Positions 30,505 through 38,266 of a stretch of DNA of 64,000 nucleotides are shown here, in pieces. This DNA comes from Candidatus Latescibacterota bacterium. GTDB taxonomy: Bacteria; Latescibacterota; UBA2968. The DNA is taken from contig JAYODI010000023.1 in assembly GCA_038279365.1 (NCBI GenBank), positions 1 to 64,000 of the forward strand. The letters are read 5' to 3'. The notes under the pieces are model-generated. The model was not told where the DNA came from, did not search any database, and saw nothing but the letters and a program-made list of their open reading frames with translations. The position numbers and the translations under genes were made by a program. The stretch's first letter is position 1, and the number at the start of each line of letters is the position of its first letter.

Positions 30505-31671
30505 ATGTCTATGAAAACACCCATTTATCTCGACCATCATGCCACAACCCCAGTTGACGAACGGGTGTTAGAGGCTATGTTGCCTTATTTTAAGGACCAC
30601 TTTGGCAATGCGGCCAGTCGCACACATACATTTGGATGGGAAGCAGAGGATGCCGTTGATCGGGCGCGTGAACAAATAGCCAAACTCATCAACGCACAAC
30701 CCAAAGACATCATCTTTACCAGCGGTGCCACAGAATCGGATAACCTCGCCATAAAGGGTGTGGCAGCTGCCTCAGAAAAACCCTGCCACATCATCACCCA
30801 AACCACAGAACATCATGCCGTGCTCGACCCTTGTAAAGCACTCGAGCGACAAGGCGTTGAAATCACAGTCTTACCCGTTGACCAACATGGGCAAATCAAC
30901 CCAGATCACATTCAAAACGCGATAAAAGACAACACAGCGCTCGTATCTGTCATGATGGCCAACAACGAAATTGGCACCCTTCAGCCGCTCACCGAAATTG
31001 GCAAACTGTGCCGCAAAAACAACATCTACTTTCACACAGACGCCGCCCAAGCCATTGGCAAATGCCCCATTGATGTCGAAGCCATGCACATTGATCTGCT
31101 CTCCATTTCTGCCCACAAAATGTATGGCCCAAAAGGTGTGGGCGCATTATATGTACGCAGCCGCCCTCGGGTGCGTCTCATTGGCCAAATGGACGGTGGT
31201 GGGCACGAAAAAAGCATGCGCTCTGGCACGCTCAATGTACCTGGCATTGTTGGCTTGGGAGAAGCCTGTGCCATTGCTCAAAAAGAAATGGCATCTGAAT
31301 CGACGCGTATCAAACATTTACGCGATCGCCTCCAGCACAAACTCTTTGAATCACTCGACCGCATTCAACTCAATGGCCACCCCGAACACCGCTTAGATGG
31401 CAACCTGAACATCAGCTTTTCGGCAGTGGATGGTGAAAGCTTATTAATGGGTTTGCGCGACATTGCCCTCTCATCAGGTTCTGCTTGCACATCGGCGTCT
31501 CTTGAACCTTCTTATGTGCTAAGAGCCATTGGCGTATCACCCGACCTGGCCCAAAGCAGCATCCGTTTTGGCATTGGCCGATTTAACACAGAAGAAGAAA
31601 TCGACCACACCACCAACCGCGTCATCGAAGAAGTAAACCGATTACGAGAGATTTCGCCGAATTATAAATAA
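30505..31671 (+). CDS. iscS: cysteine desulfurase (IscS type)
   Basis: [37 protein letters not shown]. Confidence 0.92.
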
Positions 31672-31674
31672 AAA

Positions 31675-31754
31675 TCAGTCACAAGTCGCAGGTCACCAGG
31701 TCACTGGTCTTTAGATTTTGACCTGCGATTTGCAGACCTGTGACTTGCGACCTA
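31675..31754. repeat. inverted array of degenerate heptamer repeats
   Basis: ACAAGTC GCAGGTC ACCAGGTC ACTGGTC ... TGACCTG CGATTTG CAGACCTG TGACTTG CGACCTA. Confidence 0.75.
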
Positions 31755-31769
31755 TTCTTTGGAGTATTC

Positions 31770-32588
31770 ATGCAAGCCCCCAAACAACCTCAAGCGCCAC
31801 GTCTCCTGCCAGGTGTGAAGCATATTATTGCCGTATCCAGTGGCAAAGGTGGCGTGGGCAAAACCACGGTGAGTGTAAACCTATCCATTGCACTGGCCAA
31901 AACAGGTGCTACCGTCGGGTTGCTTGATGCCGATATTTATGGTCCAAACGTGCCCATGATGCTTGGTGCCAAACGTCAGCCTGACACCGATGGTGAAAAA
32001 ATCATCCCCTTAGAAGCCCACAACATCAAACTCATGTCGTTGGGCCTTATTACAGATGAAAACACACCCATTATTTGGCGTGGGCCCATTGTGGGCAAAG
32101 TCATTCAGCAATTTATGATTGACGTCCTTTGGGGAGAACTGGACTTCCTTATTGTGGATCTGCCTCCGGGCACAGGTGATGCCCAACTCACTTTGGCGCA
32201 AACGGTGCCCTTATCGGGCGCAGTCATCGTGACCACGCCACAAAACGTGGCTCTTGAAGATGTGCATCGAGGCATTGAAATGTTTCGCAAAGTCAATGTG
32301 CCCATCTTGGGGGTTGTAGAAAACATGAGTTATTTTTTATGCCCATGTTGTGGAGACCGCACCCCGCTCTTTGGCGATGGTGGTGGCTTACGCATTGCCG
32401 ATACATTTCGCCTGCCCCTATTGGGGCAAATTCCCATCCAACCCGAAATACGCATCGGTGGCGACGAAGGACAACCCATTGCCTTGGGCGATAATGAACC
32501 CGCACGTGCATTTGCAGACATGGCGCAAACACTCAAAAACATGTTAGGTGAAACGGCACAAGGAATGCCAGAGATCACCATTGTATAA
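31770..32588 (+). CDS. mrp: Mrp/NBP35 (ApbC) Fe-S carrier ATPase
   Basis: SGKGGVGKTT, DADIYGP, DLPPGTGD, ENMS..CPCC. Confidence 0.92.
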   Translation: MQAPKQPQAPRLLPGVKHIIAVSSGKGGVGKTTVSVNLSIALAKTGATVGLLDADIYGPNVPMMLGAKRQPDTDGEKIIPLEAHNIKLMSLGLITDENTPIIWRGPIVGKVIQQFMIDVLWGELDFLIVDLPPGTGDAQLTLAQTVPLSGAVIVTTPQNVALEDVHRGIEMFRKVNVPILGVVENMSYFLCPCCGDRTPLFGDGGGLRIADTFRLPLLGQIPIQPEIRIGGDEGQPIALGDNEPARAFADMAQTLKNMLGETAQGMPEITIV

Positions 32589-32690
32589 TCCAACACTTGC
32601 GAACAAAAACCAAATTCCTTACATTTGTTATCAACAAACTCTGAAATCAATTGTTCAGTGTTTTTCACGATCAACCGAAAGGCAACCGCA

Positions 32691-33866
32691 ATGGGATTTG
32701 AAACACTCGTTGCCCAAGCCGAATCGACGACCACTGGGTTAACCCCCAAAGAAGCCCAACAAAAGCTTCAAAGTGGTGACACGGTTCTGCTTTTGGACGT
32801 GCGCGAGCGCGAAGGTTATTCGAAGGGATATATCTCGGGGGCACAAAATGTACCCCGCGGATTCCTTGAACTTCGCATTGAAGGCATTGAAAACAGCCGC
32901 AATGCCAACATCATCGTTTATGGGGCACCAGGCCAAGGGCCTTTGGCAGCACGAGCACTGCAAGATATGGGATATCAAAATGTATCGTATATCAAAGGTG
33001 ATTACGACGCTTGGATTGTTGCCGGTTATGAAACCGAACGCGACCGTCCATTGAGCAAAGCCGAAGTACAACGTTTTTCTCGCCACTTGCTCATTCCCGA
33101 AGTGGGTGAAAAAGGCCAAGGCAAATTGCTCGACGCCAAGGTATTGCTCATTGGTGCAGGAGGCTTAGGCAGTCCAACCGCCCTCTATTTGGCGGCAGCA
33201 GGTGTGGGCACCCTCGGCATTGTGGATGCCGATGTGGTCGATGTGACCAATTTGCAACGCCAAGTGTTACACGGAACATCGGACGTGGGCCGTTTAAAAG
33301 CCGTTTCGGCCTATGAAACGCTCAAAGAAATCAACCCAGGTTGCAATGTGGTTCCCCACACAGAATATCTCACATCTGCCAACGTGATGGACATTTTGCC
33401 ACATTACGACATTGTGGTCAATGGCTGTGACAACTTCCCCACACGCTATTTGGTAAACGATGCGTGTGTGTTCTTGAACAAACCCATTGTAGATGGCAGT
33501 ATCTTCAGATTCGAGGGCCAGGTTACGGTGTACTCGTGCGATAAGGAGGGGCCCTGTTATCGTTGCCTCTACCCATCGCCGCCACCGGCTGATCTGGCAC
33601 CTTCTTGAGACGAAGCAGGTGTCTTGGGCGTTTTGCCCGGCACAGTTGGCCTGGTCCAGGCCACAGAGACAGTAAAAATGATTCTCGGTCAAGGTACATC
33701 ACTCGTTGGCAGGTTGCTGATGTATGATGCCTTGAGCACAAGCTTCAACACCTTTAAGGTGCGTCGTGATCCCAATTGCCCGGTCTGTGGAAACAATCCC
33801 ACCATCACCGAGCTGATTGACTACCAAGCATTTTGTACTATGGATCATGGCGAGGCCGCAGATTAA
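32691..33866 (+). CDS. moeB: rhodanese-like + MoeB/ThiF E1 adenylyltransferase, probable selenoprotein (UGA at 33606)
   Basis: RFSRHL, GAGGLG, TNLQRQ, CYRC, APS-TGA-DEAGVLGVLPG in one frame, then RRDPNCPVC; joins the track ORFs 32625-33608 and 33624-33866. Confidence 0.88.
33619..33643 (+). promoter_or_regulatory. candidate SECIS hairpin of moeB
   Basis: GTG-TC-TTGGGC-GTTTT-GCCCGG-CAC; loop G lies 21 nt after the UGA. Confidence 0.6.
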
Positions 33867-33884
33867 GTTGTTCTTCGGCATATT

Positions 33885-33922
33885 TAAAGGGGTAGAACCG
33901 AGATAGGTTCTGCCCCTTTTTT
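33885..33922 (+). terminator. terminator after moeB
   Basis: AAAGGGGTAGAACC/GGTTCTGCCCCTTT followed by a T-tract. Confidence 0.85.
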
Positions 33923-33963
33923 ATTTGTATCTCATTTCATTTGACGCATAAAAATAAAAGGCT

Positions 33964-33986
33964 GGGCACGGAGACCGTGCCCCTAC
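33964..33986. repeat. REP-like palindrome
   Basis: GGGCACGG-AGA-CCGTGCCC-CTAC (GTAG-terminated REP-type hairpin). Confidence 0.6.
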
Positions 33987-33993
33987 GAAAACA

Positions 33994-34143
33994 ATGAACA
34001 TCAAATCCAATCATATATCGCGGGCGCTCGTACCCTCTTGAGGCCAGTCATTTTGCAGCCTGGGTCAGGTTCATCGTATGCCAACACGGCACACCCTTGT
34101 ACACGCGCGTCTACAAGTCTCTATAAAGGATGAGACCATGTAA
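33994..34143 (+). CDS. putative Sec-containing leader peptide (49 aa)
   Basis: MNIKSNHISRALVPS-TGA-GQSFCSLGQVHRMPTRHTLVHARLQVSIKDETM-TAA; SECIS-like hairpin after the UGA; no clear SD. Confidence 0.55.
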
Positions 34144-34167
34144 TGGATAAACGCATTTGTAAAAAAA

Positions 34168-34199
34168 GGGCGACTGCTGTGTGGCAGTCGCCCTTTTTT
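34168..34199 (+). terminator. intrinsic terminator/attenuator upstream of the ABC operon
   Basis: GGGCGACTGCT-GTGT-GGCAGTCGCCC-TTTTTT. Confidence 0.9.
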
Positions 34200-34348
34200 A
34201 TGATGTTTGCCCATATCGCCCAGTGCGTGCATTCCAAATTGCGGCAGAATACCTCTATTGGAAAACCGAATACAATGGTCTTGCAGAAGGCAAAGCCAAT
34301 CGGGGCGATTTGCATGCAACATTTTATTTTTAGTTCGCACACCGACAC

Positions 34349-34419
34349 ACAAGTCGCAGGTCACACGGCACAGGTCTACAAGGCGGGATTTTTAGTTTCG
34401 ACCTAAAGACTTCGACCTC
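34349..34419. repeat. second heptamer-repeat element
   Basis: ACAAGTC GCAGGTC ACACGGC ACAGGTC ... CGACCTA AAGACTT CGACCTC; ACAAGTCGCAGGTCAC is identical to the copy at 31681. Confidence 0.65.
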
Positions 34420-34443
34420 AATTCACACATAAAGGATGACAAG

Positions 34444-35301
34444 ATGAAAGCACTTTTATTTGCCTTATTCATCACCCTGACAATCTCCGTCACCACACGA
34501 GCCGAAACATTGCGCTTTACCGCCATACCAGACGAAAACACCGCACGGCTTAAAGAACGTTTTGACAAAGTGGCGGTCTACCTCTCAAAGCAGCTTGGCG
34601 TAGAAGTCGAATATGTGCCCGTTAAATCCTATGCGGCATCTGTTGCGGCATTTAAAAATAATGAAGTTCAGCTGGCTTGGTTTGGTGGGCTTTCAGGTGT
34701 ACAAGCTCGGCGTGCCGTACCGGGTGCCCAAGCGATAGCACAAGGCGAAGAAGACACCCAGTTTATTACCTACTTCATCGCCAACAAAAGCACAGGGATT
34801 CATGCCACAAAAGCATTTCCAACGGCCATCAAGGGCCACACCTTCACCTTTGGCTCCAAAGGCTCCACATCGGGTCGTCTCATGCCCGAATTTTATATTC
34901 GCCAGTACTTAAAAAAATCACCCGAAGACATTTTCTCACGTGTTGGATTTAGTGGCGACCACTCCAAAACCATTGCCCTTGTGCAATCGGGCAGTTATGA
35001 AATTGGGGCAACCAACTACAAAGTGTGGGAAAATGAACTCGACGCAGGCACCATTGACACTGCAAAAATTCGTGTCATATGGCAAACCCCCACCTACCCC
35101 GACTACAACTGGAGCATTCGAGGAGATGTGAACACAACCTTTGGCCCAGACTTTATTGCCAAAGTACAAAAAGCATTGATAGACATGGATGACCCCGAAT
35201 TGCTCAATTCATTCCCCCGCACCAAATTTATCAAAGCAGACAACAGTATGTATGACCCCATATTGAAAACTGCCATTGAAATTGGCATCATTGAAGATTA
35301 A
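34444..35301 (+). CDS. PhnD/PtxB-like substrate-binding protein, putative selenate-binding clade
   Basis: Signal peptide; FTAIPDE, AWFGGLSGVQAR, GSTSGRLMP, TPTYPDYNW, recognised as the putative selenate SBP clade (TIGR04553-like). Confidence 0.8.
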   Translation: MKALLFALFITLTISVTTRAETLRFTAIPDENTARLKERFDKVAVYLSKQLGVEVEYVPVKSYAASVAAFKNNEVQLAWFGGLSGVQARRAVPGAQAIAQGEEDTQFITYFIANKSTGIHATKAFPTAIKGHTFTFGSKGSTSGRLMPEFYIRQYLKKSPEDIFSRVGFSGDHSKTIALVQSGSYEIGATNYKVWENELDAGTIDTAKIRVIWQTPTYPDYNWSIRGDVNTTFGPDFIAKVQKALIDMDDPELLNSFPRTKFIKADNSMYDPILKTAIEIGIIED

Positions 35302-35402
35302 GATGCACCATTGTACAAAACGGACAACGTGCATCTCGCCTGTTGTTCATTTCATGATCTCACCAAGTTTATGAACCCCTATTCTATTTGAAGCGATCGT
35401 CC

Positions 35403-36056
35403 ATGTTCCATCTGACCAATATCTCTGTTGCCTACGACGATGAACCCGTTTTGCACAATATCTCTCTTCACATAGATGAAGGAGATAAGGTTGTATTCAT
35501 TGGACCAAGTGGTGCCGGGAAATCAACCCTGTTGCGCAAACTCTATGACCTACAAAAACATCAAGCAGCCTTCATCCATCAAGATTATGCACTCGTGCCT
35601 CAACTATCCACCTTTCACAACGTTTACATGGGCCAATTGGACCAACACAATATATTTTACAACGCCCTCACTCTTATTCGCCCACAAAAGAGAGAACGCG
35701 ACGAAATTGCGCCCATACTCGATGCCCTTGGCCTAACAGAAAAACAAAATGAACGCATCAGTGAACTTTCGGGTGGGCAACAACAGCGCGTGGCTGTAGG
35801 GCGCGCATTGTATCGCAATGCCAAAATTATTTTGGGTGACGAACCCGTTTCGGCCATAGACCCCCAACAATCAGATACCGTACTCCACTTGCTCAAACAA
35901 CACGCCAATACGCTTGTCTTAGCCATGCACGATGTGGAACTGGCCTTGCGCCACTTTGATCGCATCGTTGGTTTGCGCAAGGGGCGTGTCGCATTTAATC
36001 TACTGCGCAATCAAGTGACAGACACCCATCTCTCCGAGCTTTTTAACCGTGCTTAG
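35403..36056 (+). CDS. ABC transporter ATP-binding protein (PhnC-like)
   Basis: GPSGAGKST, LSGGQQQRV, GDEP, MHD. Confidence 0.92.
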   Translation: MFHLTNISVAYDDEPVLHNISLHIDEGDKVVFIGPSGAGKSTLLRKLYDLQKHQAAFIHQDYALVPQLSTFHNVYMGQLDQHNIFYNALTLIRPQKRERDEIAPILDALGLTEKQNERISELSGGQQQRVAVGRALYRNAKIILGDEPVSAIDPQQSDTVLHLLKQHANTLVLAMHDVELALRHFDRIVGLRKGRVAFNLLRNQVTDTHLSELFNRA

Positions 36057-37542
36057 AACAAGTCTCTCCTTTCTCGGCATTGCGTTGTTGTGTGTGCTCT
36101 TGGCCGACATCGAAATCACCACCCTTGATCCTTGGGGCGAACTACAGCGCATGGCCTTGGGTGCACTGACTCCCAATGTGTCTGCACTCTACAGCTTTCG
36201 CACCGCATTGCTCAACACCTTCACCTTTGCATTTTGTGGCCTCTCACTCAGCATTATCGGTGGCAGCATCCTCGCCTTCTTTTTTCACCTTACAAGTGTG
36301 CGCCTTTTTTGCGCTTTTATTCGCGCCATACACGAAATCTTTTGGGCCTTTCTCTTTTTGCCCCTTGTTGGCCTGAACCCTATTTGTGGCGTCTTGGCCA
36401 TTGCCATTCCTTATGCCGGCATCTTTGCCAAAGTTTATGCCGAAATTTTGCAAGAAACAGACCGCCAGCCCTTACAAGGGTTGCCCCACCAAACCCATCC
36501 CTTGAGCCAATTTCTCTACGGTCAGTTGCCTCTTGCCTGGGCAAACATCAAACACTACACGGCTTATCGTTTTGAATGTGCTCTGCGCTCGAGTGCTGTG
36601 CTTGGTTTTATTGGTTTGCCCACCATTGGTTTTCACCTTGAAACGGCCTTTCGCGAAAGCCTTTATGCCGAAGCGGCCGTACTTCTTTATGCCTTTTATC
36701 TCCTCATCGCCTCACTCAAATATTGGGTCAAACCCAAGCTCGTGTCTCTCTATGTCTTATTTTCTTTTGCCGTGATTCCCAAAACCATCCATTTTTCATT
36801 GGACAACCTCACCCGAATTCTCACCTACGAAATTTTTCCTTGGCCAATGCGTCGTGAAGGCTTCTTAAGTGGCAACAATGACCTCGCACTGCCCTTACAC
36901 GAAACCTATATTTGGTTTACTGAACGCCTCGTGAATGCCATTCTACCGGGCATTTGGAACACCGTTATTCTCACACAAATTGTGCTTGTTGGCACGGGCC
37001 TTTTTGCACTCATTGCATTTCCCATCATCAGTCACCATTTTTTTTCTCGCCTCGCCACCCGCATCGGACACATCGTGCTCATTGTCATTCGCACAACACC
37101 CGAATATATGCTGGCCTATCTCTTTTTACAGCTTTGGGGGCCATCCATGTTGCCTGCCATTGCAGCCATTGCGCTACACAATGGGGCCATACTGGCCTTC
37201 CTTTCAGGGCAAAGCGCCAATCACATGCACCTCCGCTTGGACGCCCCCAAAATGCGCATCAACCGGTATCTCTTTGAAATTTTACCCCGTATTTACAACC
37301 AATTCCTGGCCTTCCTCTTTTATCGCTGGGAAGTTATGATGCGCGAATCGGCCATTTTAGGCATCTTGGGTATTTATACCCTCGGTTTCTTTATTGACAG
37401 TGCCATTTCTGAACAAAAAATGGACCGCGTCATTCTATTAATCTTTGTAACGTCATTGCTCAATATGGGCATTGACACCCTATCACAGCGCATCCGCCAA
37501 CGCCTCAGATTGTCTGTAGGCACAGTGAAAACAACCATTTGA
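36049..37542 (+). CDS. ABC permease with two fused PhnE/PtxC-like halves
   Basis: Duplicated YRFECALRSS / YRWEVMMRES motifs; multiple TMs. Confidence 0.88.
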   Translation: MLRTSLSFLGIALLCVLLADIEITTLDPWGELQRMALGALTPNVSALYSFRTALLNTFTFAFCGLSLSIIGGSILAFFFHLTSVRLFCAFIRAIHEIFWAFLFLPLVGLNPICGVLAIAIPYAGIFAKVYAEILQETDRQPLQGLPHQTHPLSQFLYGQLPLAWANIKHYTAYRFECALRSSAVLGFIGLPTIGFHLETAFRESLYAEAAVLLYAFYLLIASLKYWVKPKLVSLYVLFSFAVIPKTIHFSLDNLTRILTYEIFPWPMRREGFLSGNNDLALPLHETYIWFTERLVNAILPGIWNTVILTQIVLVGTGLFALIAFPIISHHFFSRLATRIGHIVLIVIRTTPEYMLAYLFLQLWGPSMLPAIAAIALHNGAILAFLSGQSANHMHLRLDAPKMRINRYLFEILPRIYNQFLAFLFYRWEVMMRESAILGILGIYTLGFFIDSAISEQKMDRVILLIFVTSLLNMGIDTLSQRIRQRLRLSVGTVKTTI

Positions 37543-37747
37543 TCTGATCACAAGATCAGGTGTTTTTTCAAACTTGCTACAATCACCCATTCCCAAACCC
37601 CAGACTGGGAACCTTGTCTTTTGGTCTATCGTCTAAATTTATGTCGGTTTCTTCATTTAACGAACCCAAAGCACCTCCTATTGCCATTGCCCCAGTACAT
37701 AGGACATCTCACAGCCTATTGACGATTGGCATAATTCCGTTAAACTT

Positions 37748-38266
37748 ATGCATATGAACATCAAATATTACCCAATTCTTTTTTTCTGCTTGATATCTTT
37801 GTGGGGATGTGGCAACCCAGCCAAAGACTTGCCCAAAGAAAATGGCCTAAGCATTCGCCCTGCAACCGCCGAACAAGTGCTTGGTGCAATAGAAAATGCC
37901 AAAGGCAATGTGGTATTGGTCAACTTGTGGGCAACGTGGTGCCAACCTTGTGTAGAAGAATTTCCAGACATCATGGCACTCCACAAAAAATACAAAGACC
38001 GTGGCTTGAAAATTATTTTTGTTTCTGCTGACTTCGAAAACCAAACCGAAGTTGCAAAAGCCTTTCTTCAAAAACAAGGCGTAGACTTTGCCACCTATCA
38101 AAAATCGGGCAAAGACATGGCCTTTATCAACACTTTAGACGAACGTTGGTCGGGTGCATTGCCCGCTACTTGGATTTATGATGCAAGTGGCAACAAACGC
38201 CACTTTTGGGAAGGCAAAAAAGACCACGTGCATTTTGAAAAAGCCATATTAGATGCAATGGAGTAG
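37748..38266 (+). CDS. TlpA-family thioredoxin-fold lipoprotein
   Basis: Lipobox LWGC; NLWATWCQPC; GALPAT. Confidence 0.88.
   Translation: MHMNIKYYPILFFCLISLWGCGNPAKDLPKENGLSIRPATAEQVLGAIENAKGNVVLVNLWATWCQPCVEEFPDIMALHKKYKDRGLKIIFVSADFENQTEVAKAFLQKQGVDFATYQKSGKDMAFINTLDERWSGALPATWIYDASGNKRHFWEGKKDHVHFEKAILDAME

Follow-up and report, generated by a model that had tools for sequence, protein, structure and literature searches.

A candidate attenuator-type RNA leader carrying a UGA codon upstream of a TIGR04553-type transporter in Candidatus Latescibacterota

The window analysed here comprises 64,000 nucleotides (nt) of contig JAYODI010000023.1 (positions 1 to 64,000; our contig C149), part of a 6.0-Mb metagenome-assembled genome of a Candidatus Latescibacterota bacterium (assembly GCA_038279365.1, hereafter G000). 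It carries a gene for a rhodanese-MoeB fusion protein (moeB) and, beyond a 577-nt spacer, the three genes of an ATP-binding cassette (ABC) transporter of the TIGR04553 type, with two thiol-disulfide oxidoreductase (redoxin) genes downstream of the transporter. Within the spacer lies a structured element in which a short upstream open reading frame (uORF) ends in UGA, a hairpin resembling a bacterial selenocysteine insertion sequence (SECIS) follows, and a strong intrinsic terminator closes the unit. This element is real and conserved, is encoded on the plus strand and is restricted to one genus. From modelled folds and comparison with a sister species we hold, with moderate confidence, that 34007-34199 would act as a conserved cis-acting attenuator-type RNA leader, located on the left edge of a transporter cassette of 3.75 kb that was inserted between moeB and the redoxin genes; that its gate is linked to selenium or to SelB, in any form, we consider doubtful.

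A preliminary description of this DNA had read the transporter as a putative selenate ABC transporter of the TIGR04553 type, and the family assignment was confirmed, the binding protein scoring 370.4 bits against a cut-off of 250; the ATPase is PhnC-like and the permease PhnE-like. The moeB product, translated with its in-frame TGA read as cysteine, matches NF006444 at 505.6 bits (cut-off 449), and the TGA falls at what we take to be the family's conserved cysteine before the GVLG motif (APS-U-DEAGVLG). The same TGA is present in both other species of the genus that were compared, G001 and G002. MoeB is named as an already known selenoprotein family in PMC1088965. The machinery for selenocysteine (Sec) that the preliminary description expected was found in a search that covered these genes: selB (378.9 bits), tRNA-Sec (68.1 bits) and a selD with one TGA are clustered on contig C34 of G000 (32484-36920), and an fdhA-like gene with one TGA lies on contig C146 (15022-17070). 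Of 24 public runs listed for the locus, eight contain at least half of its sampled words. RNA contigs from four metatranscriptome runs cover moeB at 33300-33877, including the UGA, which is spanned in three runs at 99-100% identity; 33927-34781 is uncovered, which is no evidence either way. Features of the region are collected in Table 1.

Table 1. Features in and around the moeB-transporter spacer (positions are those of the window).
Feature	Coordinates	Strand	Remarks
IscS-type cysteine desulfurase	30505-31671		
Mrp/ApbC ATPase	31740-32588		
Rhodanese-MoeB fusion (moeB)	about 32691-33866	+	in-frame TGA 33606-33608
moeB intrinsic terminator	33886-33919	+	14 pairs, then T run; conserved in G001 and G002
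Left copy of 13-nt direct repeat ATGAACATCAAAT	33994-34006	+	start of the uORF; from an exact repeat search of the window
Short uORF, 15 sense codons (MNIKSNHISRALVPS, then stop)	33994-34041	+	ends at UGA 34039-34041; no Shine-Dalgarno (SD) sequence
Hairpin H1	34020-34048	+	UGA in 3' strand; pairs kept in G002, one G-C becoming G-U
Hairpin H2, SECIS-like	34054-34073	+	bulged C56; GGU loop 34063-34065; identical in G002
In-frame AUG (34078-34080) to stop (34141-34143)	34078-34143	+	21 codons over the antiterminator strand; rest of the long frame
Antiterminator 5' strand	34079-34098	+	CCCUU 34094-34098 pairs with AAGGG 34164-34168
Long imperfect hairpin H4	34099-34160	+	top: SD-like AAAGGAU 34125-34131 and AUG-stop 34138-34143
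Strong intrinsic terminator	34162-34199	+	5' arm and loop form the antiterminator 3' strand
Remnant of DcaP-like porin gene	34196-34333	+	last 45 codons and stop; starts at the terminator T run
Degenerate heptamer repeats (34348-34382) and TTCGACCT direct repeats (34397-34421)	34348-34421	+	ahead of the transporter SD
TIGR04553-type ABC transporter	34444-37542	+	binding protein 34444-35301, ATPase 35388-36056, permease 36049-37542
Right copy of 13-nt direct repeat	37754-37766	+	start of the first redoxin gene

The core of the element is a choice between two structures. The terminator claimed in the preliminary description is present, with 17 pairs and a 4-nt loop ahead of its T run, and a 16-nt inverted repeat of 100% complementarity (I1) lies at the same place. 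Checked base by base, the claimed antiterminator also stands, 34079-34091 pairing with 34175-34186 through 12 pairs that include one G-U, with one bulged A; in the terminator state 34079-34091 folds as a local hairpin, H3 (UGCC-AACAC-GGCA). The antiterminator is the predicted minimum free energy structure for transcripts with their 3' end at 34183 (-36.0 kcal/mol) or 34186 (-42.3 kcal/mol), while the full transcript prefers the terminator by about 9 kcal/mol (-55.1 against -46.2 kcal/mol with the antiterminator enforced). When the transcript starts at 33994 and carries no ribosome, the terminator 5' arm is predicted to stay paired upstream until 34192, outlasting the emergence of nine bases of the 3' arm, and to switch to the terminator only at 34195. 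The folds place a terminator between leader and genes, preceded in the course of transcription by an antiterminator that excludes it. Masking the footprint of a ribosome gave the behaviour that the earlier model had anticipated: with a ribosome at the UGA (34024-34054 masked) nothing changes and the antiterminator is favoured, with 34075-34105 covered the terminator pairs already at 34186-34192, and with a ribosome at the UAA the flip comes at 34192.

The strength of this alternative pairing was compared with that at other terminators of the genome, each scored by the stabilisation that its 5' arm and loop gain from pairing with the 106 nt before them. All 782 terminator-like hairpins found in G000 with one rule, the leader's own included, were scored. 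The leader reaches -15.7 kcal/mol and ranks second of the 782, against a background mean of -4.3 (standard deviation 2.8; a sample of 400 of the 782 hairpins), and the copy in G002 scores -12.4, which would place it about 11th to 12th on the G000 list. The plus-strand fold of the block has z = -3.0, and the G-U pairs of H1, H2 and the antiterminator fit this strand, that of H2 favouring it. An RNA from the minus strand was considered and rejected; its fold is more stable (z -5.1), but the G-U pairs become C-A and its left hairpin at 33964-33982 is absent in G002.

Upstream of the switch lies the open reading frame (ORF) from which the preliminary description had started, and its reading is accurate: ATG 33994 to TAA 34141-34143, with a single in-frame TGA as codon 16. 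The claimed likeness of context to the UGA of moeB, 433 nt upstream, is also apparent, V-P-S-UGA here corresponding to A-P-S-UGA there, with 10 of the 12 bases around the two TGAs in agreement. The SECIS-like hairpin, H2, occupies the claimed site (U54-G55-[C56]-AGCCUG / GGU / CAGGUU-CA), and the distance from UGA to loop is 21 nt both here and in moeB, whose hairpin reads GGGC-GUUUU-GCCC. This geometry, a GGU loop at 21 nt, matches that of the genome's own SECIS elements in selD (8-pair stem, GGU loop, 20 nt after the UGA) and the fdhA-like gene (6-pair stem, GGUCU loop, 18 nt); the spacing rule for bacterial SECIS elements is 16-37 nt. H2 ends 4 nt short of the AUG at 34078 inside the frame, and its 3' strand presents AGG 8 nt before that AUG. 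A motif of UGA plus GGU-loop hairpin, defined from the genome's own SECIS elements, occurs at 104 of 224,474 TGA triplets genome-wide (about 4.6 per 10,000). That one such motif should fall inside a 577-nt spacer adjoining selenium genes has a probability of order 0.005, which is suggestive and not proof. A decayed copy of the Sec region of moeB was considered as a source of the leader and rejected: the Smith-Waterman score of 22 equals the shuffle mean and was reached by 250 of 500 shuffled sequences and by 52 of 100 chunks of the window. Resemblance is limited to the 12 nt around the UGA and to one stem, that of a second moeB hairpin (GGCCUG/CAGGCC).

A DNA search of 41 relatives recovered the block only from G002, a species of the same genus, as 229 nt at 83% identity corresponding to 34012-34237; a metagenome contig (L109) that is near-identical to G002 also has it. 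Identity between G000 and G002 is 88/100 in 34010-34109 (uORF end, UGA, H2 and H3), falls to 27/40 in 34110-34149, where H4 nevertheless forms in both species, and returns to 54/60 in 34150-34209. Four-fold degenerate sites agree at 128 of 181 positions for moeB and at 59 of 123 for the binding protein gene, and the flanks 33920-33993 and 34240-34443 are not alignable. Judged against these sites and flanks, the identity of the block places the sensor-like 5' half and the terminator under constraint. Within it, 34079-34095 is identical, 11 of the 12 basal antiterminator pairs are kept and the same alternative long-hairpin fold is predicted for G002, so that the pairing which the preliminary description wished to see conserved is indeed conserved as a terminator/antiterminator alternative. 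In L109 the terminator was not called by the scan; its hairpin and T run are visible, and sequence and folds were therefore relied upon. At the fast-evolving top of H4 we observe a conserved island, in which AAAGGAU is followed after 6 nt by AUG and an immediate stop (UAA in G000, UGA in G002), and this island (34125-34143) resembles the transporter's own SD-ATG at 81% over 21 nt.

The reading frame fared less well than the pairing. Both species have a uORF of 15 codons when it is counted from ATGAAC; its last nine residues (HISRALVPS) are identical, and all three nucleotide changes in those nine codons are synonymous. Also kept in G002 are the UGA with its context, H2, the in-frame AUG 34078 and the position of the stop at 34141 (TAA in G000, TGA in G002), without indels up to that stop; the frame from AUG 34078 keeps its length, and its peptide is poorly conserved (13/21). 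Both G002 and L109 read UGA-GGC-UAG, however, so that a TAG closes the frame two codons after the UGA, and of the long frame that was to be conserved only the 15-codon part and the stretch from AUG 34078 to the stop survive. A six-frame comparison led us to reject a protein-coding reading of the block: substitution is coding-like nowhere but in the uORF of 15 codons. Another frame is open (+0, 47 codons, same stop); it shows 10 residue changes in 38 and lacks a good start.

These observations bear directly on the model in its literal form, in which all 49 codons of 33994-34143 are translated, selenium allows Sec read-through to UAA 34141 with termination and the transporter off, and lack of selenium stops the ribosome at the UGA with the transporter on. 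The masking geometry for this is self-consistent in G000, the spacing and loop of the hairpin match the genome's own SECIS elements, the UGA context resembles that of moeB, selB, tRNA-Sec and selD are present, and the frame is open in both species save for one codon, with its stop position retained. That one codon is nevertheless the main result against the literal model, since a Sec-inserting ribosome in G002 would stop 6 nt later and be unable to cover 34079-34098. Furthermore, each of the 13 codons that differ beyond the UGA carries a non-synonymous or nonsense change, neither SD nor promoter was found, the ATG is copied from the start of another gene (see below), and the motif arises by chance at the rate given above, with only 4 of its 104 sites in frames open for at least 30 codons on both sides. 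We consider the literal model very unlikely.

A different explanation is that the block is a stand-alone, trans-acting small RNA (sRNA) of about 200 nt (~33994-34199, plus strand) with its own terminator, the complementarity to that terminator being incidental or structural. A conserved structured block with a stable plus-strand fold that ends in a strong terminator and is unique in its genome is what such an RNA would look like, and every one of the weak Rfam hits below threshold is to an sRNA that bears a terminator. Yet Rfam 15 assigned no family at threshold to the leader, its best match being terminator-driven and reaching 30.3 bits against a threshold of 54.3 (the SECIS of moeB was missed too, the library being blind to such SECIS elements), no promoter was found in either species, the sequence upstream is not conserved, and second rank of 782 for antiterminator strength is unexpected for an ordinary sRNA. 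An sRNA is thus unlikely. Rfam likewise gave no matches on 13 related loci, and a repeat or mobile family was rejected because elsewhere in the genome the block has only terminator-like matches.

The history of the locus can be read in part from its edges. The 13-mer ATGAACATCAAAT has exactly two matches in the window, at 33994 and 37754, where 0.02 are expected, and the third species of the genus (G001, 90% complete) has moeB with its terminator and the two redoxin genes, the transporter not being found. From the repeats that bracket it, and from the G001 flanks that lack it, we conclude that the 3.75-kb transporter cassette, together with the element, is an insertion, or else was deleted from G001; the repeat pattern is also consistent with excision between the two copies. 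The ATG of the uORF and its first 13 nt are accordingly a duplicated redoxin gene start. A promoter-like site at 37719-37746 (TTGACG, 16 nt, TAAACT) ends 7 nt before the redoxin ATGAAC and is conserved in G001 and G002; such a site accompanies the right repeat copy only. The first redoxin gene, which is without an SD, may be leaderless.

The other side of the terminator may preserve an older arrangement. The remnant of a porin gene that begins in the T run (34196-34330) is 80% identical over 45 amino acids (E 6e-20) to the end of an ORF that lies upstream of the binding-protein gene at L108, the locus with the closest transporter relative (binding protein 92% identical), and the same gene (~400 amino acids, weak Pfam DcaP match) precedes the binding-protein gene in 11 Poribacteria loci; elsewhere G000 has only a 32% paralogue. 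Comparison of these sequences suggests an ancestral operon of porin and ABC transporter. Since the porin gene has lost its 5' part here, together with whatever promoter stood before it, the transporter would plausibly depend on transcription through the leader terminator. In L108 a long (CACAAGT)n array, in which CACAGGT units appear now and then, stands between the porin and binding-protein genes (~385-530); a trace of it persists as the degenerate repeats of G000 and a few GCAAGTC-like units in G002, and the array may be a length-variable spacer in a promoter or leader. Tandem duplication of the transporter leader was examined as a source of the collinear short repeats (33986-34143 against 34267-34449) and rejected, the two-unit alignment being without extended homology: only the SD-ATG 21-mer (81%) and two 9-10-mers stand out.

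Such a history invites the view that the block is functionless rearrangement debris, the end of inserted DNA with a terminator that insulates moeB, conserved through the closeness of the species or through local recombination. The direct repeats that flank the cassette, the G001 locus with moeB, terminator and redoxins but no cassette, the porin remnant adjoining the T run and the likeness of the SD-ATG copy to the transporter's own all fit this view. So does the porin remnant itself, which is ~72% identical between the species (29/40), about the 71% of four-fold sites in moeB, so that the neutral level may exceed the binding-protein figure. Even against 71%, however, the identity of 34010-34109 is high (z about 3.9), adjacent non-coding DNA is scrambled, and debris leaves unexplained an exceptional antiterminator score in both species. 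We regard debris as rather unlikely.

The preliminary description had also proposed looking for the element upstream of TIGR04553-type operons in relatives, and here 160 loci of the family were compared, 80 from species genomes and 80 from metagenomes. Beyond G000 the element occurs only at L028, the locus of G002, and at L109; moeB is adjacent to the transporter only in L028 among the 80 genome loci, and L109 carries the 3' end of moeB. Given this restriction to G000, L028 and L109, the arrangement is not a property of the transporter family. SECIS-like UGA motifs are found at 6 of 1102 TGAs within 400 nt upstream of other transporter loci and at 25 of 22,678 in whole loci, an excess that we rejected as not significant, arising in three independent lineages of which one is the G002/L109 copy. 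Two cases may be recorded. In L034, from an unrelated deltaproteobacterial metagenome-assembled genome (811-870; same sequence in L118), a five-codon ORF (MIPFN) ends in UGA about 180 nt upstream of the TIGR04553 gene, with a 7-pair GGUC-loop hairpin 17 nt after the UGA and the frame open for 35 more codons; this could be chance. A conserved block rich in GC lies ~380 nt before the binding-protein gene in both of the related genomes behind L052 (~2100-2400) and L060 (~2110-2400); a TGA within it is followed by CCAGUCC-GGUC-GGGCUGG, and the block has no Rfam match and may be coding on the other strand.

Taking the attenuator-type leader as our preferred reading, its operation can be outlined from the folds. 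During transcription 34079-34098 would zip, in silico, onto the 5' arm and loop of the terminator (34164-34186), atop H4, and the default would be read-through into the transporter. Were 34075-34105 occupied, the terminator would nucleate at once and transcription would be expected to stop. The occupant would most likely be a ribosome in the frame common to the 15-codon uORF, the UGA and AUG 34078, with the module of UGA and H2 as the putative gate. A tentative and on balance improbable extension makes the leader a selenium gauge, the uORF-UGA-SECIS module reporting the supply of SelB-Sec-tRNA to the switch. Sec insertion would lead to read-through or re-initiation, H2 would be melted, ribosomes would pass over the antiterminator strand, and the transporter would be off when Sec-tRNA is plentiful; in G000 this could proceed by direct read-through, and in G002 a two-codon advance might melt the lower half of H2 and ribosomes would start at AUG 34078. 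When Sec is scarce, the antiterminator would form and the putative selenium transporter would be transcribed. Of the attenuation model as it was first put forward, the switch is real, the logic of masking fits and the Sec machinery is present, but the long read-through frame does not hold in G002 and L109.

Several results weigh against this reading, and against its selenium-linked form in particular. The case consists of two species, in one of which the frame is broken by the TAG described above: the element is in 2 of 53 genomes of the order, counting G000 itself, and the evidence for conserved structure is a single species comparison with at most one compensatory change, in which 12 of the 59 pairs of the G000-specific fold are lost, mostly in the upper part of H4 and at the extreme 5' end. 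Upstream of TIGR04553 genes outside the genus the element was not found at any of 78 other genome and 79 other metagenome loci; our own scan saw a terminator-like hairpin within 700 nt upstream in 6 of the 80 genome loci, and L108 has the porin gene where the element would be. At the left end, the uORF owes its ATG to the insertion event, which makes it less likely from the outset that the uORF evolved as a leader peptide. As the preliminary description had itself cautioned, no SD precedes the uORF and no -10 element was apparent: the scan of 33500-34700 returned no promoter-like site, and none was found upstream of the element in G002. The UGA motif, at a chance rate of about one per 64-kb window, is of moderate significance alone; two of its four sites in long open frames are selD and fdhA, and between G000 and G002 no conserved protein follows the leader UGA, by which a SECIS might be recognised through a Sec/Cys homologue. 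Beyond the weak local hairpin H3 no anti-antiterminator was found. Finally, 245 nt separate the terminator from the transporter, among them the pseudogene piece and repeats that possibly hold a promoter of their own.

Like the ribosome-mediated attenuators of the amino-acid operons trp, his, leu and ilvBNC, the leader combines an ORF with an intrinsic terminator and with an antiterminator that excludes it and takes its 5' strand from the translated frame; it also has a stop codon 18 nt before the terminator stem and is predicted to pass from read-through to termination when ribosomes cover that strand. It differs in having no runs of regulatory sense codons, the UGA being the sole candidate control codon, in lacking an SD and any 1:2 pause or anti-antiterminator helix that we could find, in the break of its long frame in G002, and in the distance of the transporter genes, which lie 245 nt downstream beyond the pseudogene piece. 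TnaC-type leader peptides stall at a UGA stop, tna control being Rho-dependent and sensing tryptophan; like TnaC, the leader has a short peptide with a conserved C-terminal part that ends at UGA (HISRALVPS-UGA in both species).

Two selenium systems are closer in theme. In the E. coli selAB 5' untranslated region, a SECIS-like SelB operator 3 nt from the selA SD blocks translation initiation, according to 10.64898/2026.03.03.709296. By analogy, H2 is a SECIS-like hairpin situated in a leader and not in a selenoprotein gene, and could signal how much SelB-GTP-Sec-tRNA is present; it differs in following a UGA at SECIS spacing and in being tied to a terminator switch, and it stands 370 nt before the transporter SD and does not abut it. 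For fdhF(Sec) of Treponema primitia, PMC3892789 describes selenium-dependent translational coupling of transcription, and there, as proposed here, selenium supply acts on transcription elongation via the behaviour of ribosomes at a UGA/SECIS. The Treponema effect takes place inside a selenoprotein gene, has no dedicated leader or terminator switch, and selenium raises elongation, a sign opposite to that proposed here. Among the titles and abstracts listed by full-text literature searches there was no description of a Sec-codon attenuator or selenium riboswitch, and a search on TIGR04553 returned no paper.

A 2022 review states that a high-affinity selenium transport system has not been identified in prokaryotes (PMC9312934), and the terms "riboswitch", "attenuat" and "SECIS-like" are absent from it. 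If the selenium gauge were true, nothing that the literature searches turned up would precede it, either as an attenuator that responds to the 21st amino acid or as a regulator of a system dedicated to selenium uptake. It would represent a new route of trace-element sensing, through the decoding of UGA, and the coupling of Sec decoding to TIGR04553 transcription would provide functional evidence for selenium handling by this transporter family. Without the selenium link, the leader would still be a clean example of a recently assembled attenuator, with parts (a duplicated gene start, a terminator and a porin remnant) that are traceable to the insertion of a cassette, and so would bear on how such switches originate.

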